Source: an uncultured Verrucomicrobiota bacterium
GTDB lineage: Bacteria > Verrucomicrobiota > Verrucomicrobiia > Limisphaerales > JADLHS01
Assembly: GCA_937894935.1 (NCBI GenBank)
Contig: CALAYC010000215.1
Location: 1,021 to 65,020, forward strand
Reading direction: 5' to 3'
Length of the DNA stretch: 64,000 bases
Shown here: piece by piece, positions 42,838-62,463 of the stretch
Numbering within the stretch: the first letter of the stretch is position 1
Layout: every line of letters begins with the position of its first letter
Program-made: the position numbers and the translations under genes
Notes under the pieces: generated by a model
What the model was told of the DNA's origin: nothing
What the model saw: the letters and a program-made list of their open reading frames with translations, nothing else
Database searches by the model: none

Positions 42838-42958
42838 GGCTGCCATTGGTGCAACTCGGAGCATTCATTACGCCACGCACTACCGGTTGGCATCTGCGCC
42901 GCTAAAGAACCGCGCCGAGGGCCAAACCCGCCGTCACTGAAAAAAAGAAATTCACTTG

Positions 42959-44050
42959 ATGACTTTTGCGAGAGCCAACCGAATGATGCGACTGGGATTC
43001 GTGCCGCTGACCGACTGCGCGCCACTCGTCATGGCGCAGGAATTAGGACTGTTCAAAAAATACGGCTTGCAGGTCGCGCTGAGTCGCGAACTCGGTTGGG
43101 CCACGATTCGGGATAAAGTCATTCACGGTGAACTCGAAGCCGCGCATGCCGTCGCCGGAATGCCTGTGGCTGCAACGCTCGGATTGAATTCCATCGCCTG
43201 CGAATGTCTTACCGCGCTGGTGCTTAATCTTCACGGCAATGCCATCACGCTCTCGGCGGATTTGTGGAATCGCGGTGTGCGCGATGGCAAATCATTGCGC
43301 GCAGAAATTCAACGCACGCGCGGTCAGAAGGTTTTTACGATCGGTGTCGTTTACTCATTTTCGTCGCATCACTATCTGTTGCGCAACTGGCTCACTGCGG
43401 CAGGCATTCGACCGGATCAGGATGTGCGAATCGTCATTGTTCCGCCGGCGCAGATGGTGACAAATCTCAAAGCCGGTCATCTTGATGGGTTCTGCGTGGG
43501 GGAACCGTGGAACTCGTTGGCTGTGCGTTCCGGTGAAGGCTGCGTGGTTGCAGTGAGCGCGGAACTGGACCCGTTGCATCCGGAGAAAATTTTGATGGTG
43601 CGACGCGAGTTCGCGGAGAAGCGCGCGCAGGAACACATCGCTTTGATTGCGGCGTTGTTGGGAGCCTGCGCCTATTGCGATCAACCGGAGAATCACGCAG
43701 AGATAATTTCCATTCTGGCGCGACCCGAGTATGTGAACGTTTCCGAAGATGTGTTGCGGTACGGATTAACCGGTCCGTTTGCGCTGACGAAGAAAGAAGC
43801 ACGCAATATTTCGGATTTCTGCATTTTCCATCGGCATGACGCCAACGAACCCTCGGCCGATAAAGCGGGTTGGGTGATGCGCAATCTGCGCACCAGCGGT
43901 CTTGTCAGAGACCCCGGCCAACTCAGCGCTGCGTTGGGGCGTCGCATTTTTCGACCGGACATTTTCACGCAAGCCAATGCGCTGCGTCTTTCAACTCAAA
44001 CTCCCGCCGGAAAGGAAAACACCAATGAAACCAAAGTCATCTCCTGTTAA
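42959..44050 (+). CDS. Leaderless (cytoplasmic) NrtA/NasS-like nitrate/nitrite-binding protein
   Basis: 363 aa. [30 protein letters not shown]...GELEAAH...[10 protein letters not shown] parallels the periplasmic NrtA encoded next ([29 protein letters not shown]...GELDGAH...[10 protein letters not shown]). It has no signal peptide. Confidence 0.7.
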
Positions 44051-45398
44051 CTCCGTTACCCGAGTTTTAATTGTGCGGCTTCTCGTGATGGCCTTTTGTG
44101 TCGCAGCATTGTTGCTTTCTATTCTTTCCGCGCCCGCCGCGCCGAAGCTGGAAAAAACCGATCTGAAATTCGGTTTCATCAAACTCACTGATTGCGTGCC
44201 GATCATCATCGCGAAGGAGTTGGAATACTTCGAGGACGAAGGGCTTTACGTAACGGTGGAGGCGCAGTCGAATTGGAAAATTCTGCTCGACCGCGTCATC
44301 AGCGGTGAACTCGATGGCGCGCACATGCTCGCCGGGCAACCGATTGCGGCGACTATCGGATTCGGCACGAAAGCGCACGTGATTACGGCGTTCAGCATGG
44401 ACCTCAATGGCAACGGCATCACGCTCGGCAACGCCATCTGGGAGCAGATGAAAGAGATGAATCCGACGTTGAATCAAGAGCCGATCGAACGTCCGCTCAA
44501 AGCTGATTTACTCAAGCCGGTTGTGCAAAAACTCAAAGCTGAAGGCACGCCGATGAAGATGGGCATGGTGTTTCCGGTTTCCACGCACAATTACGAACTG
44601 CGTTATTGGCTCGCGGCGGGCGGTATTGTGCCGGGGTACTACACTGCAACCGACACGACGGGCACGAAGGACGCCGATGTGTTGATTTCGGTGACGCCGC
44701 CGCCGCAAATGCCGGCGACGCTCGCGCAAGGGACGATTCAAGGTTACTGCGTCGGTGAACCGTGGAATCAACAAGCGGTAATCAAAGGCATCGGCGTTGC
44801 TGCGATTACCGATCTCGAAATCTGGAAGAATAATCCGGAAAAAGTTTTTGGCGTGACGGCGGATTGGGCGGCGAAAAATCCGAACACGCACATTGCCGTG
44901 ATCAAAGCGTTGATTCGCGCGGCGAAGTGGTTGGATGCGTCGCCGGAGAATCGCATGAAGGCGTGCGAGATTTTGTCCAAACCGGAATACGTCGGTGCGG
45001 ACAAGCAGGTCATCGCAAACAGCATGACCGGAACGTGGGAATACTACAAAGGTGACAAACGTCCGATGCCCGATTTCAACGTCTTCTTCCGCTACTACGC
45101 GACGTATCCGTTTTACAGCGATTGCATCTGGTATCTCACACAAATGCGCCGTTGGGGACAGATCACCGAAGCGAAATCCGACGACTGGTATTTCGAAACT
45201 GCGAAGCAGGTTTACAAACCGGAGATCTACATGCAGGCCGCTCAAGCGCTGATCAAAGAGGGCAAACTCAAAGCCGACGAAGTGCCGCAAACCGATGGCT
45301 TTAAAGCGCCGACTGCGGAGTTCATTGATGGCATCGAATACGACGGCACAAAGCCCAACGACTATCTGAAAAAGTTTCCCATCGGTTTGAAAGACTGA
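44025..45398 (+). CDS. nrtA: Nitrate ABC transporter substrate-binding protein
   Basis: 457 aa from the ATG at 44025, preceded by an RBS-like ggaaaggaaaa. It has a signal/anchor helix and NrtA/CmpA-family motifs, followed by nrtB and two ATPase genes. Confidence 0.85.
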
Positions 45399-45404
45399 TT
45401 CACC

Positions 45405-46421
45405 ATGAGCACTTTGATCAAAACCTGCGAAAGCGTTGGGCTGAACTGGTTCGTTCCGTTCCTGCGCCTGGCCAAGCGCGACAATCCGAATGAACAACTC
45501 CGCCAGATTCTGTTGACGATCGGCGTGCCGATTATCGCAGTTCTGATTTTTCTCGGTGCGTGGAGTTGGGTCGCCAGAAACGTGAAAGTGAGCTTCGGTT
45601 CGCTGCCTGGTCCGGCGGCGGTCTGGGTGGAAGCGAAAAATCTCTGGGCCGACCACCTCGCAGAACGAAAAAAGGAAGCGGATTTTTACAAACGCCAGGC
45701 AGAACGCAAAAAGACCTTTCTGGCGGAAAATCCGACGGGCGAATGGAAAGAACGCAAATACGCAGGTAAACCCACTTATCTCGACCAGATTTTCACCAGT
45801 CTGAGAACCGTGTTCACGGGCTTTGTTATCGCGGCAATCATCGCGGTGCCGCTCGGCATCCTTTGCGGATTGAGCAAAGTCTTCAACACCGCGATGAATC
45901 CGTTCATTCAGATTTTCAAACCGGTGTCGCCGCTCGCGTGGTTGCCCATTGTGATGATCATGGTGAGCGCGCTCTACAATCCGAAAGAGCCGATGTTTGA
46001 AAAATCGTTCATCAGCTCAGCGTTCACGGTGGCGTTGTGTTCGCTCTGGCCGGCGCTCATCAACACAGCGTTGGGTGTGGCTTCAATTGACAATGATTAC
46101 CTCAATGTCGCGCGCGTGTTGAAACTCGGTTGGTGGAAGAAAGTGCGTAAGATTGTGATTCCCTCCGCGCTGCCGCTGATTTTCACCGGGCTGCGACTTT
46201 CGTTGGGCGTCGGCTGGATGGTGCTCATCGCCGCAGAAATGCTGGCGCAGAATCCAGGGCTCGGAAAATTCGTATGGGACATGTTCCAGAACGGCAGCAG
46301 CCAGACGCTCGCGCAAATCATGGTCGCGGTGTTCACCATCGGTTTCATCGGCTTCTTTCTCGATCGCACGATGATGGTCTTGCAGAAGGCTGTGAGCTTC
46401 GACGGCGCCGCAATCCGGTAA
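45405..46421 (+). CDS. nrtB: Nitrate ABC transporter permease
   Basis: 338 aa. It has the long cytoplasmic loop and permease core typical of NrtB ([34 protein letters not shown]). Confidence 0.9.
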
Positions 46422-46446
46422 AGCAATTCACCTGACAATAAATCCC

Positions 46447-47358
46447 GTGGCATTTCTCGAACTCAACAAAGTCAGTAAAGGATACGGCTTTGGCGCGAAG
46501 CGGACCGAGGTGTTGCACGACATCAATCTCAGTATCGCCGAGGGTGAGTTTGTGGCGATTGTCGGCTATTCCGGCGCGGGCAAAACCACGCTGATGTCGC
46601 TTATCGCGGGCTTGCAACGACCGGACGAGGGTTCGGTGACGTTGCGCGGCGAAACGGTGACCGAGCCATCGCCTGATCGCGCCATCGTTTTTCAGAATTA
46701 TTCGCTGCTTCCGTGGTTGAGTGTATACGAAAACATCGCGCTCGCGGTGGATGAAGTTTTCTCCCATTGGCCAGCGGAGAAACGTCGCGAACACGTGGAA
46801 AAATACATCGCGATGGTGAATCTCACGCCGGCGCGCGATAAAAAGCCGCGCGAACTTTCCGGCGGCATGCGGCAGCGCGTCAGTGTTGCGCGCGCGTTGG
46901 CGATGGATCCGAAAATTCTGTTACTGGATGAACCGCTTTCCGCTCTGGATGCGCTAACCCGTGCGGTATTGCAGGATGAGATTGCCCGCATCTGGGCGGA
47001 ATCCAAAAAGACTGTCGTGCTCATCACCAACGACGTAGATGAAGGCATCATTGTTGCCGACCGCATCATTCCGCTGAGTGCCGGCCCGCGCGCTACGTTG
47101 GGGCCGTCGGTGCAAGTGGACATTGAACGTCCACGGGATCGCAAGGCGTTGAATCACGATCCGCGCTTTAAAGCGATCCGCAAAGAAGTGATCGGTTATT
47201 TGCTGGGCGATGGTGGACACAAAAAAACTTCCGTGACGCGCAAGCTCACGTTGCCGGACATCGAGCCGGAGGATTTGAGCGTTTCGCGGTTTCATTTTGG
47301 CAGACCTCCCGCCCGGCGGAAGAGCGAACAAAAGCAGGAAACCGTCGAAACCGTATGA
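46447..47358 (+). CDS. nrtC: Nitrate ABC transporter ATP-binding protein (NrtC-type ATPase with linker tail but no NrtA-like C-domain)
   Basis: It has a GTG start, Walker [10 protein letters not shown], the signature LSGGMRQR and a ~45 aa tail after the ATPase core. Confidence 0.85.
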
Positions 47359-47398
47359 GCTGGCTGCACAGAGGACCAGCCAGAATAAACCAACTCAC

Positions 47399-48202
47399 AT
47401 GAGCCACTACGTTGAAATCGCAAATCTGACGAAGATTTATCCGACGCCCAAAGGCCCGGCGGTCATCGTCAAAGATTTCAATCTCAACATCGCGAAAGGC
47501 GAGTTCGTCACGCTTATCGGTCATTCAGGTTGTGGCAAATCGACGGTGCTTTCGATGTTGGCCGGACTGAACGACATCACGTCTGGCGGCATCATTCTCG
47601 CCGGGAAGGAACTCAGTGGGCCTGGGCCGGATCGCGGAATCGTGTTTCAATCGCCTTGTTTGTTGCCGTGGCTGACGGCGTTTGAAAACGTGATGCTCGG
47701 CGTGGACCAGGTTTTCTTCACTGCGAGCAAAGCGGAACGCCGCGCGATTGCGGAATATTATCTCACGGTAGTCGGCCTGGGGGATGCGATGCGCAAGCGC
47801 GCGACGGAACTCTCGCAAGGCATGCGTCAACGCGTCGGCATCGCCCGGGCGTTTGCGCTCAAACCCAAGATGCTGCTGCTCGATGAGCCGTTCGGCATGT
47901 TGGACGCGCTCACGCGCATCGAACTCCAGCAGGTGTTACTCGAAGTGTGGGGCCGCACGCAACTCACCGCGCTCATGGTCACGCATGATGTGGATGAAGC
48001 GATTTTTCTGTCCGATCGCGTGGTGATGATGACCAACGGTCCGGCGGCGGAAGTCGGTGATGTGCTGGAAGTGAAATTTCCGCGTCCGCGCAATCGTGCC
48101 GCATTGTTGGAGGATTCGCAGTACTACACCTGTCGCGAACACCTGATTGAATTTCTCAACGACCGCGCGCAGCGCAAACCCGGTCTCGCTCACGCTGCCT
48201 GA
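47399..48202 (+). CDS. nrtD: Nitrate ABC transporter ATP-binding protein
   Basis: The start is trimmed to [10 protein letters not shown]. It has Walker [10 protein letters not shown] and the signature LSQGMRQR. Confidence 0.9.
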
Positions 48203-48203
48203 T

Positions 48204-50231
48204 ATGTTTTACCGCGCCAGACTTGCTCCGACTGGGTTGGATTCCGGAAACGGAAAACAACACGACGCCCGAAAACGCGCTGTTTCCAAAAACGTGAAAA
48301 CAGTCGTGGTCATCGGCAACGGCATGGCGAGTTACAAGTTGTGTGAGCGTCTCGTCGCGCTGGACGACGACGGAGAATTTCGCCTCGTGGTGTTCGGGGA
48401 AGAAAAGCAACCGGCTTACGACCGTGTGCATCTGACCTCGTTCTTCGAACAACCTGTTGCAGAGAAACTGTTGCTCGCGCCGTTGTCCTGGTATGCGGAA
48501 CAGAACATCGAATTGCATCTGGGCGACCCGGTGGTGGCGGTGGAGCGCGAATCGAAAAAGGTTCGCACCGCGAGCGGAAAAGAGGTTGCTTACAATTATC
48601 TGATTTTTGCGACCGGTTCGCGTGCGTTCATGCCGCCATTGCCGGGCCAGGAATTATCCGGCGTTTTTCTGTATCGCACGATTGAAGATTTACAGGGCAT
48701 TCGTGAACACGCGCAAAACTGCAAACGCGCGGCAGTTTTGGGCGGTGGATTGCTGGGAGTCGAAGCCGCGAAAGCTTTACGGGATCTCGGACTTGAAGCC
48801 TGGATTGTCGAGCGCGGTGTTTCGTTGCTCGCGCGTCAACTTGATCCGCAAGCCGGTGCGTTATTGCAAACGCACGTTGAAAAGCTCGGCATTCATGTTT
48901 GCACGCAGCGCGAAACGCAAAGCATTGAAGCACTTGGTGAAGATCGGTTGCTGCAATTCAACACCGGCGAATGTCTGCGCGTGCAATTGGTCGTCGTGGC
49001 AGCGGGGATTCGACCGCGCGATGAACTGGCGACGGCATGCGGACTCGAAATCGGCGCGCGCGGTGGCATTTGCATCAACGACGCGCTGCAAACTTCTGAT
49101 CCGAATATTTATGCGATTGGCGAGTGCGCGTGTCATCGCCACGTGGTTTACGGACTGGCCGCCCCCGGTTATCAGATGGCGGATGTGCTGGCGGAAAATC
49201 TCGCTGGCAAACGTCGCAAATACACCGGGAGCGACCAGTCCACGCGACTCAAACTCAGCGGCATCGAAGTCGCCACGCTCGGCGATTTTCAGGCGAACGG
49301 TGATGAATCGGTCAGTTGGCAGGGGAACGGAGCGAGTCGGCGCTTGGTTCTGGAGAAAGGTCGGCTGGTCGGGGCGACGGCAGTTGGCGATTGGCCCGAA
49401 GCCGTGCGAATCCAAGAACTCGCCGAACGCCGGGCGCGTGTCTGGCGTTGGCAGAAAATTCGTTTTGCGCGCACGGGCAAACTATGGAAAGCCGAGACCG
49501 CGCCGCATGTCAGTCAATGGCCGGCGAATGCGCTTGTTTGCAACTGCGTTGGTGTGCGACGCGGCATGTTGAGCGCGGCGTGTGCGGAAGGTTGTGCGAC
49601 GGTGGAAGCGTTGGCGAAGCGGACCGGAGCGTCCACGGTTTGCGGCTCGTGCAAACCGTTGCTCGCGCAACTCGTCGGTGCGCCTGCGTGGTTGAATGAA
49701 CTTCCCGGACTCAAACCGCTGGCGATTGCGTGTTCCATCGCGCTGATTTTCGCGCTGGCCATTTTCTTCGCGCCGCCGATTGCATTCGCAGATTCCGTGC
49801 AGGGAAAACTTCATTCCGTGAATGCGTTGTGGCGCGATGGATTCTGGAAACAGATTACCGGATTCACACTCATCGGGCTGGTGTTGATCAGTCTCGGCCT
49901 GTCACTGCGCAAGCGCATCAAGCGATTTACGTTTGGCGAATTCGGTTACTGGCGCGCGATTCATGCGGTATTGGGAACGATTTCGCTTATCGCGCTGGTG
50001 ACGCATACGGGGTTTCGCCTCGGCAATAATTTCAATTTTGTGTTGATGCTGAATTTTCTCGCGCTCGTGTTGGTGGGAGCACTCGCAGGCATGGTGACGG
50101 CGCTGGAACGGCGGTTGAGCCCCGTGGCGGCGAAACGATTGCGGGCATTCTGGACCGGAACTCACATCGCATTGGGGTGGCCGATGCCGGTGCTCGTCGT
50201 GTGGCACGTGATAGTTGCGTATTACTTTTGA
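48204..50231 (+). CDS. Fusion protein: NirB-type NAD(P)H/FAD reductase half with a BFD-like [2Fe-2S] domain, fused to a C-terminal 5-TM bis-His (ferric-reductase-like) membrane domain
   Basis: By eye it is colinear with the E. coli NirB N-terminal half (VVVIGNGMAS, YRTIEDL, GGGLLGVEAA, SDPNIYAIGECA, GLAAPGYQMA). It has a BFD-type CNC...CGSC motif at about 49539-49655. The TM domain (49710-50228) has H-x13-H in two helices. Confidence 0.75.
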   Translation: MFYRARLAPTGLDSGNGKQHDARKRAVSKNVKTVVVIGNGMASYKLCERLVALDDDGEFRLVVFGEEKQPAYDRVHLTSFFEQPVAEKLLLAPLSWYAEQNIELHLGDPVVAVERESKKVRTASGKEVAYNYLIFATGSRAFMPPLPGQELSGVFLYRTIEDLQGIREHAQNCKRAAVLGGGLLGVEAAKALRDLGLEAWIVERGVSLLARQLDPQAGALLQTHVEKLGIHVCTQRETQSIEALGEDRLLQFNTGECLRVQLVVVAAGIRPRDELATACGLEIGARGGICINDALQTSDPNIYAIGECACHRHVVYGLAAPGYQMADVLAENLAGKRRKYTGSDQSTRLKLSGIEVATLGDFQANGDESVSWQGNGASRRLVLEKGRLVGATAVGDWPEAVRIQELAERRARVWRWQKIRFARTGKLWKAETAPHVSQWPANALVCNCVGVRRGMLSAACAEGCATVEALAKRTGASTVCGSCKPLLAQLVGAPAWLNELPGLKPLAIACSIALIFALAIFFAPPIAFADSVQGKLHSVNALWRDGFWKQITGFTLIGLVLISLGLSLRKRIKRFTFGEFGYWRAIHAVLGTISLIALVTHTGFRLGNNFNFVLMLNFLALVLVGALAGMVTALERRLSPVAAKRLRAFWTGTHIALGWPMPVLVVWHVIVAYYF

Positions 50232-51610
50232 TGGCTCAGAAGCACAAATGGCTCTGGATTCTCTGGAGCGTCGTAACTTTGGCAATGAGTGGCATGGCAA
50301 CCTATATCCTGACGGGGTCGGACCGGCGTTTTCTTTTGCCGGGTGAAACCACCAGCGGCCATTACCAGATTGAACTCGCCTGCAGCGCGTGTCACACACC
50401 ATGGCTCGGGGTCAAAGAAGACGCGTGTTACAAATGTCACGAAGCGGAGTTGAAAGCCGCGAACGATTCGCATCCGAAAAGCAAATTTATCGATCCGCGA
50501 AATGCCGATCGCTTGCAACTCATCAAAGCGGACAACTGCGTTGCGTGTCATCGCGAACATGTGCCGCATCAGACGGGGGCGATGGGCGTGACGGTGCCGA
50601 TTGATTATTGCGCGCATTGTCATCAACAAACGCTGACTGATCGACCGAGTCACAAGAATTTCAAATTCGATTCCTGCGCCACGGCGGGCTGCCACAACTA
50701 TCACGACAACTCGGCGCTTTATGAAAATTTTCTGCTCAAACATGCCCAAGAGCCGGCGGTGAAAGATTCGGGGACGGTGGCGCAACGACAATTGCTCGCG
50801 TTCCTGACGGCCGATGGCGTGATGAAACCGCGTCCCGCGCTCACGGCGGAACAACAGGACGCGCCTGCCAATGTGACTGCGAACGCGAAGGTGAAAGAGG
50901 ATTGGTTGACGACCGCCCACGCCAAGGCGGGCGTGAATTGCACCGATTGTCACAACATCGAGGATGCGGCGACGCGTGAGAAACGTTGGTCGGATAAGCT
51001 GGCTCCCAATGCCTGCACGCGGTGTCACAAGGAAGAGGTGAACGGTTTTCTCGCCGGAAAACACGGGATGCGGCTCGCGTTGGACCTGCCGCCGATGACT
51101 CCGGCGCAGTCACGACTGCCGATGAAAGCGGACGCGGCGCATCACGAGTTGGGTTGTGTGAGTTGTCATGGCGCGCATGAATTCAACACGCGCACGGCGG
51201 CGGTTGACGCGTGTCTTTCCTGTCACAACGACGAACACAGTCTGGCCTACAAAGACTCCAAACATTTTGCGCTTTGGTTCAACGAAACGACGGGTGAAGC
51301 GCCAGCGGGCAGCGGAGTGAGTTGCGCCACCTGTCATCTGCCGCGCGAGAAAATTGAAAACGCGGGCCATGTCATGGTGCGCGTGCAGCACAATCAGAAT
51401 GCGAATTTGCGTCCCAACGAAAAAATGATCCGCAGCGTCTGTATGGGTTGCCACGGGCTGGAATTCAGTCTCGATGCGCTCGCAGATCCGGCGTTGATCT
51501 GCACCAATTTCATCGGTCGCCCCGCCCGGCATGTCGAGAGCATTGACCTGGCGGTAAAGCGACAGATGGAAATTCAAAAACAAAAATCCAAACCCCGTAC
51601 TGAAAAATGA
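50231..51610 (+). CDS. Membrane-anchored multihaem cytochrome c (10 CXXCH plus 1 CX4CH)
   Basis: 459 aa with an N-terminal TM (WLWILWSVVTLAMSGMATYIL). Motifs are CSACH, CYKCH, CVACH, CAHCH, CATAGCH, CTDCH, CTRCH, CVSCH, CLSCH, CATCH and CMGCH. It has a TGATG overlap with the upstream gene. Confidence 0.85.
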   Translation: MAQKHKWLWILWSVVTLAMSGMATYILTGSDRRFLLPGETTSGHYQIELACSACHTPWLGVKEDACYKCHEAELKAANDSHPKSKFIDPRNADRLQLIKADNCVACHREHVPHQTGAMGVTVPIDYCAHCHQQTLTDRPSHKNFKFDSCATAGCHNYHDNSALYENFLLKHAQEPAVKDSGTVAQRQLLAFLTADGVMKPRPALTAEQQDAPANVTANAKVKEDWLTTAHAKAGVNCTDCHNIEDAATREKRWSDKLAPNACTRCHKEEVNGFLAGKHGMRLALDLPPMTPAQSRLPMKADAAHHELGCVSCHGAHEFNTRTAAVDACLSCHNDEHSLAYKDSKHFALWFNETTGEAPAGSGVSCATCHLPREKIENAGHVMVRVQHNQNANLRPNEKMIRSVCMGCHGLEFSLDALADPALICTNFIGRPARHVESIDLAVKRQMEIQKQKSKPRTEK

Positions 51611-52209
51611 AAGCGAAACCCCTGAAACCTCTTCTACTCGTCGGCACATTGATGGCGACGATTGTCAGCGCCACTGTTCTGACCGGCTGTAATAAAGCGG
51701 AAGCTGCTAAAGCGTCCGGATTCACGCCGCAACAGATGGCGGACAATCTGTTCATCGTGATGTCGTCCGATCGTGCGGTTTATACCAAACAGGTGGTCAA
51801 TCGTTTGCAGAACGACGAAAAAATCATCAAGGCCACTGAGCACTGGAAAGACGAGAAAACCTTGCCGTTGCCGGCCCAGATGTTCCGGATGGGCGCGGAA
51901 ACGGTCGCAGAAAAGAAACCTGGATTCAGCTACGCGTTGTTGTCGCTCTGGCCCATCAACAAACAAAACGAACCGAAAACCGAAGCTGAGAAGAAGGGAT
52001 TGCAGTTTGTCGCGGACAGCAAAGGGGCGACGAATTTTTACGCGGAGGAAGTTCTCGGCGGGAAAAAATATTTCACAGCGGTTTATGCAGACGTCGCGGT
52101 TTCTCCCGCGTGCGTGAAGTGCCACAACGATCACGATGACTCGCCGAAAACGGATTTCGAGTTAAACGACGTGATGGGCGGCGTGGTTATCCGTTTGCCG
52201 TTGGATTGA
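51607..52209 (+). CDS. DUF3365 (Tll0287-like) haem-c lipoprotein
   Basis: It has a lipobox VLTGC and a C-terminal ACVKCHNDHDDSPKTDFELNDVMGGVVIRLPL, which is characteristic of DUF3365. It has an ATGA overlap with the cytochrome gene. Confidence 0.75.
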   Translation: MKAKPLKPLLLVGTLMATIVSATVLTGCNKAEAAKASGFTPQQMADNLFIVMSSDRAVYTKQVVNRLQNDEKIIKATEHWKDEKTLPLPAQMFRMGAETVAEKKPGFSYALLSLWPINKQNEPKTEAEKKGLQFVADSKGATNFYAEEVLGGKKYFTAVYADVAVSPACVKCHNDHDDSPKTDFELNDVMGGVVIRLPLD

Positions 52210-52245
52210 TTCAAGTCAAAGCAAGCAACTCAGAAAGGAAATAAC

Positions 52246-52662
52246 ATGACGCCACAACAAGTGACTCTTGTACAGACCAGTTGGGAAAAATGCGTGCCGA
52301 TTGCGGATCAGGCGGCGGCGCTCTTTTACGGCAAATTGTTTGAACTCGATCCCGAACTGAAACCGCTTTTCAAAACGGATTTGAAAGAGCAGGGTAAAAA
52401 ATTGATGACCATGATCACCATGGTGGTGCGCGGGTTGAACGATCTCGGTCGGCTCGTGCCCGCGGTCGAAGATCTCGGTCGCCGCCATGTGGGTTACGGG
52501 GTGAAGGACGCGCATTATGCGACAGTCGGTACCGCGTTGCTCTGGACTTTGGAGCAGGGACTGGGACCGGAATTTACGCCGGAAGTCAAAGAAGCCTGGA
52601 GTACCGCTTACGGCGTTTTGGCGACGACGATGCAAAAGGCTGCCGCCACAACTCCCGCTTGA
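52246..52662 (+). CDS. Single-domain (3-on-3) bacterial globin
   Basis: 138 aa with no signal peptide. VQTSWEKCVPIADQAAALFYGKLFELDPELKPLF...LGRRHVGYGVKDAHYATVGTALLWTLE contains the proximal-His region HVGYGV. Confidence 0.8.
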   Translation: MTPQQVTLVQTSWEKCVPIADQAAALFYGKLFELDPELKPLFKTDLKEQGKKLMTMITMVVRGLNDLGRLVPAVEDLGRRHVGYGVKDAHYATVGTALLWTLEQGLGPEFTPEVKEAWSTAYGVLATTMQKAAATTPA

Positions 52663-54043: not shown

Positions 54044-54072
54044 TCGCTGTTTCTCGGGTTCGATGTGACAAG

Positions 54073-54105
54073 TGCGCTGGTCAAACGGCCAGCGCACCTT
54101 TTTTG
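54073..54105 (+). terminator. Rho-independent terminator after the porin gene
   Basis: A perfect 9-bp stem gtgcgctgg / ccagcgcac is followed by cttttttg. Confidence 0.75.
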
Positions 54106-54385: not shown

Positions 54386-56044
54386 ATGACATCCGCTCCT
54401 GACAACGCTCCGCGCAACCGGCCTCCCGCCGAATCGGCGCGTACGTTGATTGATGAACTGTTGGCGGAGCAGCAACGGCTCACGGCGGTGGAGCGGTTTT
54501 CCCGTTTGCATGAAACCAACGGGCTTCCGGCGCAGGCGCGTTACTACCGCGATTTAATTCCGCAGACCAAACCGCAGCCCGGGCAGCAATACGCATTCGA
54601 AGTGGATCTCGATCGATGCAGTGGCTGCAAGGCGTGCGTCACGGCGTGTCATTCGCTCAATGGACTCGAAGAAACGGAAACGTGGCGCAACGTGGGATTA
54701 TTGATCAGCGACGATTGGCGCGCGCCGCAACAGCAGACGATTACCACCGCGTGTCATCACTGCGTCGAACCGGGTTGTCTCGAAGGTTGTCCGGTGTTGG
54801 CTTACGACAAAGACCCGGTCACCGGCATCGTGCGGCATCTCGATGATCAATGCATCGGTTGCCAATACTGCGTGATGAAGTGTCCGTACGAAGTGCCGCA
54901 GTATTCGAAACGGCTCGGCATTGTGCGCAAATGCGACATGTGCGCAAATCGCCTCGCGGTCGGTGAAGCACCGGCTTGTGTGCAGGCCTGTCCGCATGAA
55001 GCGATCAAAATTACGTTAGTCGAAACGGCTGCGGTCCGGGAACGCTATCGCGCGACTCAAGATTGCGGAGAAATCAAGGAGAAGGAAAGAGCGCGGAACA
55101 ATCATTCCGCGAATCCGTTTTTGCCCGCGTCGCCGTCACCGCAGATTACGCTGCCGACCACGCGTTACAAATCCACTCGACCGCTGCCATCGACCTTGCT
55201 CGCGGGTGATCACGCGCATGTTGCTCCGGCGACATCGCATTTGCCGTTGGTGTTCATGTTGGTGCTGACGCAATTGGCGGTTGGCGTGAGCCTCGCGACG
55301 TTGTTTGCGTCGCTATCGCAATGGTTGGCCGTTACTGCTGCAATCGTCAGTGCCGTTGCATTGGGCATTGCTTCTTTGCATTTGGGCAAGCCGTTGAAAG
55401 CGTGGCGCGCCTTTCTTGGTTGGCGCACGTCATGGTTCAGTCGCGAAGTTATCGCCTTCGGTGCTTATGTGCCGCTGGCGATGTTGACGGCGGTAACTTT
55501 CTTTGTTGCACCGCTGACTTCGTTGCAAAAGCCACTGATGCTGCTGACCGTCGCAACGGGATTGGTTGGCGTTGCATGTTCGGCGATGATTTATGTGGAT
55601 ACGCGTCGGGAATTCTGGTGCGGATCGCAAAGCTTCGGAAAATTCTTTGGCACGACATTGCTCCTCGGTGCGGCGACAGCGTTGTTAGTCACAGATTCGA
55701 CAAGTTCGATACCGGTTGTGCTGCTGTTTTTTACCACGGCTGCAAAGTTGGGACTGGAACATCGCATTTTCCGGCATCTGGTGGATAAAGACACGTTGAC
55801 GTTGTCGCCATTGAACAAAACCGCACGGCTGCTAACAGATGAACTTGGACTGGCGTCGCGGAGTCGCATCTTCTGCGGAATGCTGGGCGGACTGATTCTG
55901 CCGTTGGGGCTGGTGATGTCGGAGCCGAATCGCGTGTTGGCGATCGTGGTGTTCGGGCTGTGTCTCGTGGGGGAATTGCTGGAGCGCTATCTGTTTTTCA
56001 CGGCAGTTGCGCCCGCCAAAATGCCGGGAGGTTTTGTCGCATGA
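54386..56044 (+). CDS. Fusion of a DmsB/NrfC-type four-cluster FeS protein with a DmsC-like 8-TM membrane anchor; no TAT signal
   Basis: It has four Cys groups ([44 protein letters not shown]...CVQACP). Eight hydrophobic helices follow, with a DmsC-like [14 protein letters not shown]. The start is uncertain (54317 or 54386). Confidence 0.75.
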
Positions 56045-58503
56045 ACGCGGAACAAGAAAATTCTCTGCTGCGGCAATGGAACGGCGCGTTGACGCAAAAA
56101 CTTGGGTTGCGGCCCGGAGATTTTGGCCTCGGTCATGTTCCCGCGCGACTCAAACCGGACAGCACGACGACTTCGGTCTGCGGTTTTTGTTCAACCGGTT
56201 GCGGGTTGAACGTTCATCTCAAAGACGGCCAGGCAGTGAATCTCAGCGCGGCGACGCATTATCCGGTCAATCTCGGTATGGCGTGTCCGAAAGGTTGGGA
56301 AGCGCTGAGTTGTCTTTCCGCGTCTGACCGCGCCACCACGCCGCTCTTGCGCAATCCGAAAACCGGTGAGCTTGAACCGACGGATTGGGATCAAGCGATG
56401 CAGGTGTTCACGCTGAAGTTCAAAGCGATCATGGATAAGCATGGGCCGGAGAGCGTGGCGTTTCTCAGCACCGGCCAGATTTGCACGGAGGAACTCGCGT
56501 TGCTCGGCTGTCTGTGGAAATTCGGCATGGGCGCGTTGCATTGCGATTCCAACACGCGCCAGTGCATGGCCACTGCGCATGTTGCTTACAAACAGAGTTT
56601 CGGTTTCGACGCGCCGCCGTTCACTTATGCGGATTTTGAGTTGAGCGATACGCTGGTGTTCATCGGTGCGAATCCATGCATCGCGCATCCCATCATGTGG
56701 CAGCGCGTGCTGCGAAATAAAAATCAGCCAAACATTATCGTCGTCGATCCGCGTCGCACGGAGACGGCGATGAACGCCACACAACATCTTGCGCTCGCAC
56801 CAAAATCCGATCTTACGTTGCTCTACGGGCTCGCGAATTTACTGGTGCAAAACGGTTGGGTGGATCGCGAGTTCATCGCGCGCAGTACGACGGGATATGC
56901 AGAGTTCGCGGAATTTGTACGGCAGTTCACGCCGGACAAAGTTGCGGCGGAAACGGGTTTGACCGTCGGAGAAATTTATCGTTGTGCGGAAACGATTCAT
57001 CGCGGCAAGGCGGTTTCGTTCTGGTGGACGATGGGCGTGAATCAAGGTCACGAAAGCACACGCACTGCACAGGCGATTATCAATCTCGCGTTGATGACGG
57101 GGAACATCGGCAAACCCGGAACAGGAGCGAACAGTATCACGGGGCAATGCAATGCGATGGGTTCGCGGCTCTACGCAAACGTGACGAGCCTGATTGGCGG
57201 ACGTGACTTTGCGAAGGTGGAACATCGTGAGCAGGTCGCGCGATTGCTGAAGATTCCGGTGGAACGAATCCCGAAAAAATCGTCGTGGGCGTATGATCAG
57301 ATTGTTGAAGGTATTCGCAGCGGAACGATTAAGGGACTGTGGGTGATTGCGACGAATCCAGCGCATTCGTGGGGCGCGCGGCTTGAAAAGAAAAACGGTG
57401 TGACATCCGCCCTCACCCCCGAGGAGAGGGAGAAACGCTCCCCGTCTTACGAGAATGCGAGCGCGGTCAGCGGCTCGCAGGTTAAACGCGAATTCAAGAA
57501 TGCTCAACTGCTATCCCCTCTCCCCGGGGGTGAGGGTGAGCGTGACAATGATTCATTCGACGCCATTCTCGACAAACTGGAATTCCTCGTCGTGCAGGAC
57601 ATGTTCACAACCACGGACACGGCTCAACGCGCGCATCTCATGTTGCCGGCGGCCGGTTGGGGCGAGAAGGAAGGCACGTTCATCAACAGCGAGCGCCGTA
57701 TCGGTTTGACGAAAAAAGTTTCTCGCGCGCCGGGGCAGGCGTTGAGCGATTTCAATATTTTCAAACTCATCGCGCACTATTGGGGCTGTGGCGAATTATT
57801 CCGCGAATGGACTTCGCCCGAAGCAGCGTTTCAGATCATCAAGCGACTCTCAGCCGGACAGCCTTGCGACATCACGGGGATCGTGGATTACAAACATCTC
57901 GATGAGTGCGGCGGAATTCAATGGCCGTTACCGCAATCTGACGGAGTACGGCTGTGGTCGCAGCCTCAGCCGCAGCACGATGAAACGAATAGAAGCGTAC
58001 GAAATAATGAGAGTGCTGCGGCTGGTGCTTCGCACACAGTCGCGTTCGATGAGAGGAGATTGTTCGTCGATGGCAAATTTTATACGCCCGATGGTAAGGC
58101 GAGATTTTTGTTCGATACGCCGCGACCCGTTGCCGAGCCGACGACGGAAGAGTTTCCGTTCGTGATGTTGACGGGGCGCGGCACGAGTGCGCAATGGCAC
58201 ACGAATACGCGCACCGGGAAGTCAGCCGTATTGCGCACACTGTATCCCGCGAATCCGTACGTGGAAATCAATCCTGCCGATCTCGCGCGACTCGGCTTAG
58301 TGGCGAATCGTCCCGTGGCTGTGGTATCGCGTCGCGCGCGAATTGAATGCGCGGCAGTGGCGTCGCCAAGTGTTCAGCCCGGGCACGTGTTTATTCCGAT
58401 GCACTACGACGTGACGAATCAATTGACCCGCGCCGAATACGATCCGCATTCGCGTCAGCCGAGTTACAAATACTGCGCCGTGCGGCTGGAGAAGATTTCA
58501 TGA
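56041..58503 (+). CDS. nasA: Molybdopterin (bis-MGD) oxidoreductase of the assimilatory nitrate reductase NasA/NarB type, with two in-frame repeat insertions
   Basis: It has an ATGA overlap with the FeS/anchor gene. It has an N-terminal [4Fe-4S] motif CGFCSTGCG...ACPKG and no twin-arginine leader. The C-terminus [20 protein letters not shown] is typical of Nas/NarB. Confidence 0.8.
57409..57545. repeat. Family A palindromic element inserted in frame in nasA
   Basis: The arm ccctcacccccgaggagaggg (57410-57430) is the reverse complement (20/21) of ccctctccccgggggtgaggg (about 57515-57535). It encodes [12 protein letters not shown]...[12 protein letters not shown], and SPL..GGEG is shared with the miaA copy. 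Confidence 0.6.
57952..58039. repeat. Family B palindromic element inserted in frame in nasA
   Basis: ctgtggtcgcagcctcagccgcagcac (57952-57978) pairs with gtgctgcggctggtgcttcgcacacag (58013-58039) at 22/27 positions. The right arm is near-identical to intergenic 7033-7059. Confidence 0.55.
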
Positions 58504-58669
58504 AAACCCATCGAGTACCAACAGCCAGGCTACAGAGAAGTACCAGGTTTCAAGCTCCAACGCGTGTCAGCGCAGGAGGAATTATTTTGAAGTTTGGTGC
58601 TTGGAATTTCTTTGGATGTTGGAGCTTGGGGCTTGGTTATTTTCCTCGTCCGCTTCTTTTCAATTTTCA

Positions 58670-60475
58670 ATGACGAACATTCCTTTCATTCCTGAATCCG
58701 CTCCGTTCACCGTGGAACAACGCGCGTGGCTCAACGGTTTTCTCGCCGGTCTGTTCTCGCAAGTGCCCGCCGGTGCGCCGACGCCGCAACTGAACATTGC
58801 TCCGCTCAAGCCGCCGGGTGAACCGTTGCTCGTGCTATACGGATCGCAGACGGGCAGCGCGGAAGGACTCGCGAAAAAGGTAGCGAAGGAAGCGGAAGTG
58901 CGCGGATTTGCGCCGAAGCTCGCGGCGTTGAACGATTTTGAATCAGCAGGATTCGTTACGGCGAAAAAGGCGGTCATCATTTCGAGCACGTGGGGCGATG
59001 GCGAACCGCCGGATAATGCAGTGAATTTCTGGAGTTGGCTCAATGGCGATGCCGCGCCGCGGCTGGAGAATTTGAATTTTGCGGTGCTCGGGTTGGGCGA
59101 CCGGAACTATTCCGATTTCTGCGGTGCATCGAAGAAGTTTGATGTGCGATTGGAAGCGCTCGGGGCGAAACGCGTTGTGCCGCGCGGCGAGTGCGATGTG
59201 GATTACGAAGGTCCGGCGAAGGCGTGGATTGATGGACTGTGGGAAAAGCTGAGTGAAGGGAGGGCGGGCAGTCCCCTGTCTGCCGCCGTTGGCAATGGCG
59301 CGAACGGCGCGCATGGAGTGACGCGTCCTACCAGCGAAGCCAACGGCGCTCCGAAAGTTTACGGCAAATCCAATCCTTTCCCCGCAAAGCTGCTCAAGAA
59401 CGTGCTGTTGAACAAGCCCGGCTCGGGCAAGGAAGTGCGCCACTACGAAATTTCACTGACCGGAAGTGGCTTGACGTACGAAGCAGGCGACGCGCTCGGG
59501 GTTGTGCCGGTGAATTGTCCCGAACTGGTGGACGACATCATCACCGCGCTCAAAGCAAATCCCGATGAGAACGTGAAGTTCGGCGACAAGATTGTGTCGT
59601 TGCGCGAGGCGTTGACGCATCACCTGGACGTAACGAAGCCGTCGCAGGAATTGTTGGCGGTCGTGGCGAAAGCGGCGCCGCAAAGTGAGCTTGCGGCGTT
59701 GCTCGGGCCGGAGAAACGTGACGGGTTGAAAAAGTGGTTATGGGGGCGGCACGTGATTGATTTGCTCGAACTGCTGCCGGCGCCGATGCCGGTGACAGAA
59801 TTTATTCCGCTGCTCAAAAAACTGGTACCGCGGCTCTACTCGATTTCCTCGTCGCCCAGAATGCATCCGGGTGAAGTGCATTTGACGGTTGGCGCGGTGC
59901 GTTACGAGAGTCACGGACGTAAACGCAAAGGTGTGGCTTCGACGTTTCTGGCGGATCGCGTCGGTGAGATGGAATTCGTGAAAGTGTTCGTGCAGCCGTC
60001 GCATGGATTCAAACCGCCGGCCAACGGAGATACGCCGATGATTATGGTCGGGCCGGGCACGGGCATCGCGCCGTTTCGCGCGTTTCTGGAAGAACGTCAG
60101 GCGACCGGTGCGAAGGGTAAAAACTGGTTGTTCTTTGGCGATCAGAAGCGCGACACGGATTTTCTTTACGGGGAATTACTCACTGGCTGGCACAAATCGG
60201 GTTTTCTTACGCGGCTGGATTTGGCGTTTTCGCGGGATCAGGAGCAGAAGATTTATGTGCAGGATCGCATGCGGGAAAACGCAACAGAACTGTGGTCGTG
60301 GCTCGAAGCTGGCGCGCACTTTTATGTCTGCGGCGATGCGAGTCGCATGGCGAAGGACGTGGACGCGGCATTACACGCGATTGTGGAAACTGCCGGTGGC
60401 AAGAGTGCCGAAGAGGCGAAAGCATACGTGGCGAAATTGAAAACGGAGAAACGATATCAACGAGATGTGTATTGA
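58670..60475 (+). CDS. CysJ-like diflavin (flavodoxin-FAD-NADPH) reductase
   Basis: 601 aa. It has an FMN domain (LVLYGSQTGSAEG...SSTWGDGEPP), an FNR-like domain (RLYSISSSP, GPGTGIAPFRAF) and the terminal YQRDVY. Confidence 0.85.
   Translation: MTNIPFIPESAPFTVEQRAWLNGFLAGLFSQVPAGAPTPQLNIAPLKPPGEPLLVLYGSQTGSAEGLAKKVAKEAEVRGFAPKLAALNDFESAGFVTAKKAVIISSTWGDGEPPDNAVNFWSWLNGDAAPRLENLNFAVLGLGDRNYSDFCGASKKFDVRLEALGAKRVVPRGECDVDYEGPAKAWIDGLWEKLSEGRAGSPLSAAVGNGANGAHGVTRPTSEANGAPKVYGKSNPFPAKLLKNVLLNKPGSGKEVRHYEISLTGSGLTYEAGDALGVVPVNCPELVDDIITALKANPDENVKFGDKIVSLREALTHHLDVTKPSQELLAVVAKAAPQSELAALLGPEKRDGLKKWLWGRHVIDLLELLPAPMPVTEFIPLLKKLVPRLYSISSSPRMHPGEVHLTVGAVRYESHGRKRKGVASTFLADRVGEMEFVKVFVQPSHGFKPPANGDTPMIMVGPGTGIAPFRAFLEERQATGAKGKNWLFFGDQKRDTDFLYGELLTGWHKSGFLTRLDLAFSRDQEQKIYVQDRMRENATELWSWLEAGAHFYVCGDASRMAKDVDAALHAIVETAGGKSAEEAKAYVAKLKTEKRYQRDVY
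59256..59335. repeat. GC-rich palindrome-containing insert in the FMN-FAD linker of the cysJ-like gene
   Basis: It encodes EGRAGSPLSAAVGNGANGAHGVTRPTSE. It contains the hairpin gcgggcag/ctgccgc and the perfect palindrome gacgcgtc. There is only one copy in this window, so repeat status rests on my memory of similar peptides in related genomes. Confidence 0.35.
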
Positions 60476-60657: not shown

Positions 60658-62463
60658 ATGAGTAACGTGACTTTACCCGAACCGATTGCGAATGCGGGGT
60701 TCACTGCGGAACAGAAGGAATATCTGACCGGATTGTTTGCCGGCGTCGCCGCGCGCGGACAACGATTCAGCGATGTTGAGCCGGTGCCCGTCGCATCGCG
60801 GGAGGAGTTGATTCTCGAAGAGCGCATCAAGCGTGAATTGCATCCGCTCGATGCCTATGGACAAATCGTTGAGAACGCTGCCAACAACAAAGCGCCGGAC
60901 AAAGAGGACATTTTCCGCTTCAAATGGCACGGCTTGTTTTTTTTGACGCCGGTGAAAGATGCATTCATGTCGCGGCTGCGAATTCCCGGCGGCGTGTTGA
61001 AGTCGTATCAACTGCGGGAATTGGCGCACATCGCGCAGCAACTCACCAGTGGTTACGTGCAGATCACCACGCGCGCGAATCTGCAAATTCGTCTGATTCA
61101 ACCGAAGGACGCGCCGGAGTTTTTGCAACGCGTGCAAGCGATCGGAATGCACACGCGTGGCAGTGGCGCGGATAACATTCGTAATCTGACGATGAATCCC
61201 ACGGCAGGCATTGATCCGGTGGAGTTGATTGATGTGCAGCCGTTCGTGCAACAGCTCGCGCAGATCATTGTCAATGATCGGTCGTTTTACGATTTGCCGC
61301 GCAAGTTCAATATTGCGTACGACGGAGGCGGGCTGATCGGTTCAGTCGAGGATACGAACGACATCGGGGTGAAAGCGGTTTTAGTAGCTGAGCCTGATAA
61401 GTCTGACCTCTCACCCTCAATCCCTCGCCCCGTTGAGGAGAGAGGGAAGGGCATAGTGGACGCATCGGGAAATCCAATCGAGCCGGGCGTGTATTTCCGC
61501 ATCGCGTTGGGAGGAGCGACAGGACACAAATCTTTCGCGCGAGACCTGGGCGTGATTGTACCGCCGAGTGAGATTAATAAAGTCGTGGTGGCGATTGTGC
61601 GCGTGTTCATCGAGAAAGGTTGCCGCACGAATCGCAAACGGGCGCGTCTTAAACATCTGCTCGAAACGATGTCGCTGGGGGAATATCTCGCGCTCGTGGA
61701 AAAGAAGTTGGGCAAAACACTTCAGCGTGCCCCGTATGATGTTACGTCGATGCGGTGGGCATCGCAGGAACTGGCACATTCGCATGTCGGCGATTTTCCG
61801 CAGAAGCAAAAGGGTTTCAGTTACGTCGGCGCGACGTGTCCGGTTGGTAACATCACGCCGAAGCAGATGTTGCGCGTGGCCGAGTTGGTGGATTTATACG
61901 GCAGTGGCGAAGTGCGACTGACCGTGTGGCAGAATTTCATCATTCCGAATGTGCCGGATGCGTTTGTGCCGACGTTGAAGCGCGCGTTGGACAAAGCAGG
62001 TTTGCCGACGAAGCAGTCGAATCTGGCGAGCGGCGTTATCGCCTGCACCGGAAATTCTTACTGCAAATTCGCGCAAGCGAATACGAAAGGACACGCGCTG
62101 GAGGTGATTAAACAATTGGAGAAGAAGCTGGAGTTGGATCAGCCGGTGAACATTCATGTCACCGGTTGTCCGAATTCGTGTGCGCAACATTACATGGGCG
62201 ATATCGGGTGTCTCGGTACAAAGACCAAAATTAACGGTGAGGGCGTGGATGCGTATCACGTTTTCGTGGGGGGCGGTTTTGGGAAAAATCAGGCGGTGGG
62301 GCGACAGGTTTTCTCCGGCGTAACGGCGGCGCAATTACCCGGAATAATCGAAACCATGTTGCGTGCATACCTGAAGTATCGCGCGAAGAAATCAGAGACG
62401 TTTCAAGAATTCACCAAACGACACGAAGTCGGACGATTGCAGGAAATGTTCGCGGAGTTTTAA
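60658..62463 (+). CDS. nirA: Sirohaem/[4Fe-4S] nitrite (or sulfite) reductase hemoprotein, NirA-type
   Basis: 601 aa with duplicated NIR/SIR ferredoxin-like and sirohaem-binding halves and a Cys cluster (ACTGNSYCKF...TGCPNSCAQ). The nitrate-cluster context favours nitrite. Confidence 0.8.
   Translation: MSNVTLPEPIANAGFTAEQKEYLTGLFAGVAARGQRFSDVEPVPVASREELILEERIKRELHPLDAYGQIVENAANNKAPDKEDIFRFKWHGLFFLTPVKDAFMSRLRIPGGVLKSYQLRELAHIAQQLTSGYVQITTRANLQIRLIQPKDAPEFLQRVQAIGMHTRGSGADNIRNLTMNPTAGIDPVELIDVQPFVQQLAQIIVNDRSFYDLPRKFNIAYDGGGLIGSVEDTNDIGVKAVLVAEPDKSDLSPSIPRPVEERGKGIVDASGNPIEPGVYFRIALGGATGHKSFARDLGVIVPPSEINKVVVAIVRVFIEKGCRTNRKRARLKHLLETMSLGEYLALVEKKLGKTLQRAPYDVTSMRWASQELAHSHVGDFPQKQKGFSYVGATCPVGNITPKQMLRVAELVDLYGSGEVRLTVWQNFIIPNVPDAFVPTLKRALDKAGLPTKQSNLASGVIACTGNSYCKFAQANTKGHALEVIKQLEKKLELDQPVNIHVTGCPNSCAQHYMGDIGCLGTKTKINGEGVDAYHVFVGGGFGKNQAVGRQVFSGVTAAQLPGIIETMLRAYLKYRAKKSETFQEFTKRHEVGRLQEMFAEF
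61400..61455. repeat. Single-hairpin family A-like element in frame in nirA
   Basis: cctctcaccctcaatccctcgccccgttgaggagagagggaagg has the stem ctctc..ctcaa / ttgag..gagag and shares tccctcgccccg with the miaA copy. It encodes LSPSIPRPVEERGKG. Confidence 0.45.

Follow-up and report, generated by a model that had tools for sequence, protein, structure and literature searches.

A pair of overlapping genes was analyzed in a 64,000-nucleotide stretch of DNA (the window) from an uncultured Verrucomicrobiota bacterium (assembly GCA_937894935.1, contig CALAYC010000215.1, forward-strand positions 1,021–65,020). The first gene encodes one iron–sulfur (FeS) protein fused to a DmsC-like membrane anchor, and the second one encodes a molybdenum (Mo) enzyme resembling assimilatory (Nas) nitrate reductases; together, they occupy window positions 54386–58503. 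The two proteins probably constitute a cytoplasm-facing nitrate reductase, which takes its electrons from a quinol, presumably menaquinol, and catalyzes the first step of nitrate assimilation. The family represented by this pair is real and widespread; it is built of known modules, it has an architectural precedent, and apparently it is uncharacterized. The pair had been singled out by an original prediction, which was made from the DNA letters and described it as a cytoplasm-facing, membrane-anchored and quinol-linked nitrate reductase.

The gene pair and its two products

At E ≤ 1e-30, the fusion protein matched 752 of the 50%-identity cluster representatives; nearly all of the top 150 are fusions of almost full length. 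When one genome per species was scanned, at least 561 relatives were obtained; the counts of related loci given in this study rest on the best 80. Each of these 80 is a fusion of full length, and they come from Verrucomicrobiota, Planctomycetota, Myxococcota (nine Sorangium genomes among them) and Acidobacteriota. Like in the window, the FeS and anchor parts are encoded by a single open reading frame (ORF) in all 80 loci. The original prediction had proposed a survey of the neighbors of the fusion: one Nas-like Mo gene lacking a twin-arginine translocation (Tat) leader follows it immediately in 79 of the 80 loci, and in the 80th the contig ends there. The ATGA overlap of the two window genes, which had been noticed before, was read in the sequence again; overlaps of 4 or 1 nt are present in 57 of 79 related loci, and therefore the arrangement is not due to chance. 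It points to translational coupling of the fusion and Mo genes. Only separate DmsB and DmsC-type genes were found when a plasmid collection was searched with the fusion; none of the matches spans ≥80% of the query. Three of the related loci (L011, L034 and L048) come from records titled 'uncultured Bifidobacterium', 'Akkermansia' and 'Klebsiella', yet the loci are of typical verrucomicrobial/planctomycete type; the taxonomic labels of some metagenome-assembled genome records appear unreliable.

The fusion protein is 552 residues in length; one alternative ATG at 54317 would extend it to 575 residues. Its N-terminal domain contains four ferredoxin-type Cys groups (C78/81/84/88, C123/126/131/135, C156/159/162/166 and C183/186/198/202), and none of the 16 Cys varies among 37 diverse homologues of 39–63% identity. 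Pfam search matched the protein to Fer4_11 (4e-20) and to DmsC (PF04976, 2e-12, profile positions 7–273 of 275). In NCBIfam, the best match of the fusion is DmsB (130 bits, under its cutoff); none of the NCBIfam matches of the fusion or the Mo subunit reaches its cutoff, and that collection models neither the anchor domain nor SoeC. The N-terminal domain shares 36% identity with Escherichia coli DmsB, and the C-terminal domain can be aligned colinearly with E. coli DmsC across all eight helices. One conserved motif at the N-terminus of the fusion (54440–54560), which includes ...YRxLxP, is missing from DmsB; its predicted local distance difference test (pLDDT) values are 53–70 in the single-chain model.

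Eight transmembrane (TM) helices were obtained both by hydropathy analysis and in the AlphaFold2 (AF2) model of the fusion. The model, which was calculated with the homologue alignment as input, has a pLDDT of 87.7 and a predicted TM-score (pTM) of 0.86; it contains eight long helices and two short loop helices. Foldseek matched the N-terminal half to FdnH, ArrB and PsrB (TMt 0.68) and the C-terminal half to PsrC (TMt 0.73) and ActC. When the Protein Data Bank (PDB) was searched by sequence with the family profile, the FeS domain alone was detected, and PsrC was found by fold comparison only. Taken together, the Cys positions, Pfam matches, hydropathy and AF2 model bear out that four Cys clusters are followed by eight TM helices in one ORF, and the helices and the PsrC-like fold agree with membrane anchoring.

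The SREVIAFG motif, which the original prediction had pointed out, is located at residues 352–359 and aligns with the Glu87 region of E. coli DmsC. Glu354 within it is 22 residues away from His332, and the spacing between His65 and Glu87 of DmsC is the same. His332, Glu354, His285, Ser349, Ser352, Arg353, Ser399 and Tyr403 are all invariant in the 37 homologues; the membrane domain has only two invariant His residues, both at the cytoplasmic boundary. His65 and Glu87 of DmsC reportedly take part in menaquinol oxidation, as concluded from E. coli mutants of the Weiner laboratory.

The 820-residue Mo subunit contains the Molybdop_Fe4S4, Molybdopterin and Molydop_binding domains of Pfam. Its best PDB match is Desulfovibrio desulfuricans NapA (1e-97), with the Mo-ligand Cys aligned. 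Like Nas and Nap, the subunit carries a TGQxNAMG motif; moreover, its Cys-Met pair (Table 1) is common to Klebsiella NasA, Paracoccus NasC, S. meliloti NasA, Paraburkholderia NasA::CysJ and E. coli NapA. At the corresponding position, FdhF and FdnG have selenocysteine or Cys followed by His. We constructed a neighbour-joining (NJ) tree with 200 bootstraps, explicit split counting and NarG as outgroup. The family was recovered in 100% of the bootstraps, and so was the family together with one soluble Cetobacterium enzyme; the nitrate-reductase clade, without FdhF, FdnG, DmsA and NarG, was recovered in 96%, and grouping with FdhF in 0%. E. coli NapA does not cluster with the family, and NarG is the most distant reference, sharing 21.9% identity with the Mo subunit over aligned columns. 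As judged by sequence, the Mo subunit is a member of the Nas/Nap clade of nitrate reductases. No clustering with non-nitrate enzymes was observed, and its earlier identification as a nitrate reductase is upheld by the Cys-Met pair, the 96% clade and the assimilation gene context.

It is highly unlikely that the Mo enzyme acts on some other substrate, such as formate, chlorate or selenate, and that its nitrate context is coincidental. The NCBIfam models Fdh-alpha and NasA_Halo score the protein equally (about 442 bits each, both under cutoff), and JGI often labels its relatives 'anaerobic selenocysteine-containing dehydrogenase'; however, all 67 family members have Cys-Met and not the U/C-H of formate dehydrogenases, the FdhF grouping received no bootstrap support, and in four phyla the Mo gene is linked to genes of nitrite reductases and nitrate transporters.

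Ahead of its first Cys motif, the Mo subunit has one N-terminal motif with the consensus ..GPLTxELxLxPGxFGLGxVP..PDATT. Klebsiella NasA, Paracoccus NasC and S. meliloti NasA lack this motif; they start 5–10 residues before the first Cys. The family-specific N-terminal motifs of the fusion and the Mo subunit are candidate elements of the partner interface.

The nearest soluble relative of the Mo subunit that we found is encoded by the Cetobacterium somerae plasmid NZ_CP143320.1 (3986–7744; locus L082) and shares 43.5% identity over aligned columns. It is encoded together with one 135-residue Fer4_11 protein, homologous to the FeS domain of the fusion, and one FAD-dependent pyridine nucleotide oxidoreductase. 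This enzyme is likely the NAD(P)H-linked counterpart of the membrane-linked family. Because the soluble relative uses a homologous Fer4_11 protein and a FAD oxidoreductase, the comparison suggests that a quinol-linked input module took the place of an NAD(P)H-linked one when the family arose.

Predicted orientation of the anchor and proposed path of the electrons

Neither the fusion nor the Mo subunit has a Tat leader. All in-frame starts up to the preceding stop were inspected in the window and in 79 related loci, and no twin Arg followed by a hydrophobic stretch was found; the earlier observation thus holds for any choice of start. Twin-Arg strings do occur where the Mo frame is read through far upstream, but these were not accepted as Tat signals, as they are located within the preceding gene, in another frame, and no hydrophobic region follows them. 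The mean number of Lys and Arg residues is 14.6 in loops 2–3, 4–5, 6–7 and the C-terminus of the anchor, compared to 2.1 in loops 1–2, 3–4, 5–6 and 7–8, and the first set is richer in these residues than the second one in 37 of 37 fusion homologues. The homologous loops of E. coli DmsC, the termini of which are periplasmic, show the opposite bias (about 3 versus 7–8). Since the charge bias is reversed compared to that of DmsC, the fusion anchor appears to have its N-terminus inside, inverted relative to the E. coli protein. The lack of Tat signals and the positive-inside rule are two independent lines, from which the FeS domain, the Mo subunit and the predicted quinol site are all predicted to be cytoplasmic. 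This agrees with the cytoplasm-facing orientation proposed originally.

The best structural relative of the Mo subunit, NapA, is periplasmic, and one might therefore imagine a periplasm-facing, Nap-like complex that is exported through an unrecognized route. We give this idea an extremely small probability: no start in the 79 loci provides a Tat motif, NapD, NapB and NapC are absent, and, by the positive-inside bias, all 37 homologues have their FeS-proximal loops on the cytoplasmic side. No Sec or YidC export route is known for one 285-residue, cofactor-loaded N-terminal domain.

In the mechanism that we propose, two polypeptides with three modules would form one cytoplasm-facing nitrate reductase. 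Quinol, probably menaquinol, would be oxidized at the DmsC-type site, which would be composed of His332, Glu354 and other invariant residues close to them, where TM1–4 end on the cytoplasmic side. The electrons would enter the N-terminal ferredoxin domain of the fusion with its four [4Fe-4S] clusters and pass from this chain, through FS0, to the Mo-bis(molybdopterin guanine dinucleotide) (Mo-bisMGD) center with its Cys175 ligand. At this center, nitrate imported by NrtABCD would be converted to nitrite; the latter would then be reduced by one separate NAD(P)H-linked enzyme, NirA with the CysJ-like protein in the window and NirBD in many relatives. Menaquinone is the respiratory quinone of the host phyla, which would fit a low-potential quinol donor. 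As the pair has no haems, and the quinol site and the active site would both be on the cytoplasmic (N) side, the nitrate reduction step is most likely electroneutral across the membrane; a redox loop of the NarGHI type is not expected, and energy would be conserved upstream only, at the reduction of the quinone pool. The equivalents of DmsC His65 and Glu87 are invariant, in line with the quinol link of the original prediction; the quinol donor itself, the direction of electron flow and the electroneutrality are steps that we infer.

The neighboring genes are consistent with a role in assimilation. Fifty of the 53 loci larger than 15 kb encode NirB(D) or NirA(+CysJ) at a distance of 10 kb or less, and many of the 53 also carry Nrt or NarK transporters. 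None of the 80 related loci encodes NapB/C/D/F/G/H or NarH/I/J. NirB is present in 40 loci and NirD-like proteins of Rieske type in 34; CysJ matches co-occur with a NirA match in the listed related loci, the exceptions being contigs that end nearby. Across these loci, the partner that the Mo enzyme always keeps is the fusion. Since 31 of the 53 large loci have NirB, lack NirA plus CysJ and still retain the fusion, CysJ is not expected to be the donor of the Mo enzyme; for the CysJ-like protein of the window, the best assignment is to NirA, as whose donor it would act.

The NAD(P)H-linked flavoproteins that are adjacent almost always (NirB in 40 loci, NirD in 34, CysJ beside NirA) can be read differently, namely that the Mo enzyme is an ordinary, NAD(P)H-dependent assimilatory reductase. 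Electrons from NirB/NirD or from the CysJ-like protein would then enter the four-cluster domain, and the membrane domain would only place the enzyme near the nitrate transporter and oxidize no quinol. One NirD-like ferredoxin of Paracoccus serves both the nitrate and the nitrite reductase. We consider this reading rather unlikely; the fusion stays constant while the donor proteins vary between loci, and the invariant His332, Ser349, Ser352, Arg353, Glu354, His285, Ser399 and Tyr403 cluster at the DmsC menaquinol site, which is unexplained for one passive tether.

Alternatively, the pair could be mainly dissimilatory, serving anaerobic or micro-oxic respiration or redox balancing, perhaps with one proton pathway in its NrfD-like anchor and with assimilation as a secondary role. 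Its architecture is that of respiratory complex iron-sulfur molybdoenzymes, the Lacipirellula genome paper places the pair among the anaerobic-respiration capacities (PMC6995999), and several NrfD-like subunits have been proposed to translocate ions (PMC8076601). This is nevertheless unlikely, as 50 of the 53 large loci are assimilation clusters with cytoplasmic, ammonium-forming nitrite reductases and uptake transporters, both sites are predicted on the N side without a redox loop, and the half-channels are poorly defined in DmsC and SoeC according to the NrfD review (PMC8076601). Proton transport could also accompany assimilation: the inverted anchor would send the quinol protons outward via its helix-5–8 bundle, driven by the large potential drop from menaquinol to nitrate, so that nitrate assimilation itself would generate proton-motive force. 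If true, this coupling mode would be unlike both the redox loop of NarGHI and the soluble Nas enzymes; we regard it as quite improbable.

Comparison with known enzymes

DmsABC, PsrABC and NrfCD-type complexes have their catalytic and FeS subunits in the periplasm, where these arrive via Tat. The original prediction took it as a premise that such complexes always face the periplasm; it thereby overlooked SoeABC, the peripheral subunits of which are hypothesized to be on the N side, with SoeC then inverted and its quinone site on the N side (PMC8076601). SoeABC, the sulfite:quinone oxidoreductase of Allochromatium, Aquifex and Ruegeria, and not NarGHI, is the closest architectural precedent of the pair. 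Like SoeABC, the pair has no Tat leader, and its eight-TM anchor of the DmsC family shows an N-in charge bias. Different from SoeABC, in which the catalytic subunit SoeA belongs to the sulfite-oxidizing clade and has an unrelated function, the Mo subunit of the pair is of Nas/Nap type. Electrons flow from the substrate to quinone in SoeABC, whereas flow from quinol to the substrate is expected here; the B and C components are separate proteins in SoeABC and are fused here.

A related anchor is encoded by the Azospirillum brasilense plasmid NZ_CP059453.1 (1981–6713; locus L091), together with one Tat-less Mo oxidoreductase and one FeS protein; it came out of the search of the plasmid collection. 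The locus adjoins xsc, encoding sulfoacetaldehyde acetyltransferase, and its NCBI annotation is generic. The L091 anchor carries HLGRPERAWRALSQWRSSWLSRE, which is almost the consensus of the fusion family, and it has the same charge bias; the motif HLGRP..AWRA...WR.SWLSRE is common to both. By BLAST, the window anchor matches the L091 anchor with an E value of 2e-9, compared to no significant match to E. coli DmsC; the hidden Markov model scores are 81.6 bits for the L091 anchor and 64.2 bits for DmsC. The Mo subunit and the SoeA-like protein of L091 share about 25% identity, over 248 residues of the N-terminal part only.

Like DmsABC and PsrABC, the pair consists of one bis-MGD subunit with FS0, one four-cluster ferredoxin and one haem-free, eight-TM anchor with quinol residues equivalent to His65 and Glu87. 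However, DmsABC and PsrABC are Tat-exported and face the periplasm; the pair has no Tat leader, its charge bias is reversed, its B and C parts are fused, and its catalytic subunit is of the Nas/Nap clade.

Compared to NasA, NasC and NarB, the Mo subunit is likewise predicted to be cytoplasmic; it shares with them the absence of a Tat leader, the Cys-Met pair (R-x-C-M-[AS]), the gene context of nitrate uptake and nitrite reduction, and the clade, which includes NapA. Klebsiella NasA and Paracoccus NasC possess one C-terminal BFD-type [2Fe-2S] (Fer2_BFD) domain and NADH reductase partners. The domain was not found in the Mo subunit, and the family has no such partner either. Paraburkholderia encodes one 1390-residue NasA::CysJ fusion, and no fusion of this kind occurs in the family. 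Different from the Nas enzymes, the family has the additional N-terminal motif, and its conserved, coupled partner is an integral membrane FeS protein.

NarGHI is membrane-bound, faces the cytoplasm and oxidizes quinol, as proposed for the pair here, and the mycobacterial NarGHI also serves assimilation. The term 'NarGHI-like', which had been used for the pair, is appropriate as far as it means one quinol:nitrate reductase with a cytoplasmic active site. It does not extend further: no NarH, NarI or NarJ homologues are encoded in the 80 loci, and as the pair lacks a di-haem b subunit like NarI, no quinol site on the periplasmic (P) side and no redox loop are expected. Regarding Nap, the monomeric NapA of D. 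desulfuricans is the closest solved structure to the Mo subunit, but the pair has neither the Tat leader nor NapB/C/D/F/G/H.

Several points weigh against one quinol-dependent, assimilatory nitrate reductase. By analogy, quinol oxidation would rest on the residues conserved with E. coli DmsC, and the contact between the FeS clusters of the fusion and FS0 of the Mo subunit is assumed. The NirD-like proteins of the 34 loci could also feed the Mo subunit, as NasG does in Paracoccus. The NJ tree included few references, none of them a cyanobacterial NarB or Bacillus NasC. Finally, L091 is probably a SoeABC system, an assignment derived from its architecture and its xsc neighbor, with no Soe model in NCBIfam. 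Even so, we favor the quinol-dependent nitrate reductase.

Nitrate-assimilation cluster, palindromic inserts and implications

The pair is part of one nitrate-assimilation cluster on the plus strand, spanning ~42.9 to 62.5 kb of the window; its features are listed in Table 1. The cluster starts with two NrtA-like genes, NrtB and two ABC ATPases, continues with one NirB-N-terminal-like flavoprotein with a membrane tail, one multihaem cytochrome c, one Tll0287-like protein and one globin, and ends with one Alginate_exp-family porin, the FeS::DmsC fusion, the Mo gene, the CysJ-like flavoprotein and the NirA-family nitrite reductase. Nrt transporter homologues adjoin the gene pair in several related loci as well.

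Table 1. Positions of the gene pair, its predicted functional sites and neighboring features in the window
Feature	Position	Strand	Basis
NrtA-like (two copies), NrtB and NrtC/D nitrate ABC transporter genes	42956..48202	+	ORFs; function inferred from similarity
Terminator-like hairpin 3' of the porin gene	54072..54097	+	11-bp stem with 8 GC pairs, then T-run; consensus match alone
FeS::DmsC fusion gene, 552 aa	54386..56044	+	Pfam, NCBIfam, AF2, Foldseek
Four ferredoxin-type Cys groups, aa 78–202, predicted 4 x [4Fe-4S]	54617..54994	+	Cys positions; conservation
DmsC/SoeC-like membrane domain, aa 285–540, 8 TM helices, predicted N-in	55238..56005	+	AF2 helices; Lys+Arg bias; DmsC alignment
Predicted quinol-site loop, aa 332–359, with H332 and E354 as equivalents of DmsC H65 and E87	55379..55462	+	Spacing; conservation
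ATGA stop/start overlap	56041..56044	+	Read from sequence
Catalytic bis-MGD subunit gene, 820 aa	56041..58503	+	Pfam, PDB search, NJ tree
Family-specific N-terminal motif, ~35 aa, before the FS0 Cys motif	56065..56175	+	Conserved across listed family members
FS0 [4Fe-4S] motif C47-x2-C50-x3-C54 ... C82-P-K-G	56176..56286	+	Molybdop_Fe4S4; residues invariant in alignment
Cys175-Met176, predicted Mo ligand and nitrate-reductase signature residue	56563..56568	+	C-M in 67/67 family members
In-frame insertion in the Mo subunit, ~58 aa, originating from a palindromic repeat element	about 57391..57564	+	Alignment; inverted arms
CysJ-like NADPH flavoprotein gene	58601..60475	+	NCBIfam cysJ, 650 bits; PRK06214 above its cutoff
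NirA-family sirohaem nitrite reductase gene, second pathway step	60658..62463	+	NCBIfam NF007126, 714 bits, above cutoff

The strong hairpin between the porin and fusion genes suggests that transcription of the nitrate and nitrite reductase genes is separate, as a unit of its own. As predicted from its sequence, the hairpin is likely the upstream boundary of this unit, which would start with the fusion gene; no comparable hairpin was found between the gene pair and the CysJ-like and NirA genes. At the other end of the cluster, signal peptide and TM segments are both missing from the first NrtA-like product (42956–44050), which may therefore sense nitrate in the cytoplasm, like NasS. The other NrtA-like product (43902–45398) has one hydrophobic anchor at its N-terminus. 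Two divergently oriented LysR regulators are located on the minus strand (40848–42880), just upstream of the NrtA-like genes.

One conserved accessory module (48147–52662) recurs beside the pair in distant phyla (L058, 14548–18902; L071, 17335–21469). In one of its proteins, the NirB-N-terminal-like FAD/NAD and BFD [2Fe-2S] domains are fused to one five-TM tail, which contains two di-haem-b-like His pairs spaced by 14 residues (His606/His620 and His673/His687). The other members are the membrane-anchored cytochrome with 10 CXXCH motifs, the Tll0287-like haem protein and the globin. This composition suggests NAD(P)H-driven, transmembrane electron export to the periplasm.

The insertion in the Mo gene has 32-nt inverted arms (57399–57430 and 57516–57547). 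Of the 67 family members, 65 do not have it, and neither does the closest relative, P0272 (94% identity over the alignment); judging from this alignment, the ~58 residues are not part of the conserved enzyme. In close relatives (L048, proteins P0273–P0297 and P0356), palindrome-derived inserts, either related to this one or different, are present at the same loop, at one second loop after IQWPLP and at the N-terminus, and the Mo proteins of these relatives vary from 728 to 861 residues in length. The palindromic elements of Rickettsia insert in frame, and the Mo-gene inserts resemble them in this respect. Another palindromic element, which is G-rich, is located at 7444–7576 of the window, where it overlaps one minus-strand ORF (7074–8213). 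It has GGGGAGAGGG / CCCTCTCC cores and imperfect inverted arms of 39 nt, and it is possibly related to the Mo-gene element.

Databases name the two proteins in various ways. The fusion is the 'DmsC/YnfH family molybdoenzyme membrane anchor subunit' of NCBI and the 'formate dehydrogenase iron-sulfur subunit' of JGI; the Mo subunit is found as 'nitrate reductase', 'assimilatory nitrate reductase catalytic subunit', 'narB2' or 'anaerobic selenocysteine-containing dehydrogenase'. One genome paper mentions the pair in one passing sentence, with the Mo subunit labelled NapA (PMC6995999). No functional study of the pair was found in the searchable literature, which omits most subscription journals, and an earlier description is possible.

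In textbooks, assimilatory nitrate reductases are soluble and depend on NAD(P)H, ferredoxin or flavodoxin. If our reading is true, the family would add a third class, which is membrane-bound and fed by quinol. It would also provide a further candidate for an inverted NrfD/DmsC anchor with its site on the N side, beside SoeABC, and cultured hosts such as Sorangium and Adhaeretor are at hand. The nasA/narB marker genes of the host phyla would need reinterpretation. Soils and waters harbor abundant Verrucomicrobiota, Planctomycetota, Myxococcota and Acidobacteriota; if the reading is true, the energetic cost of nitrate assimilation in these hosts would change, because the electrons would travel via the quinone pool and the upstream coupling sites and would not come directly from NAD(P)H.

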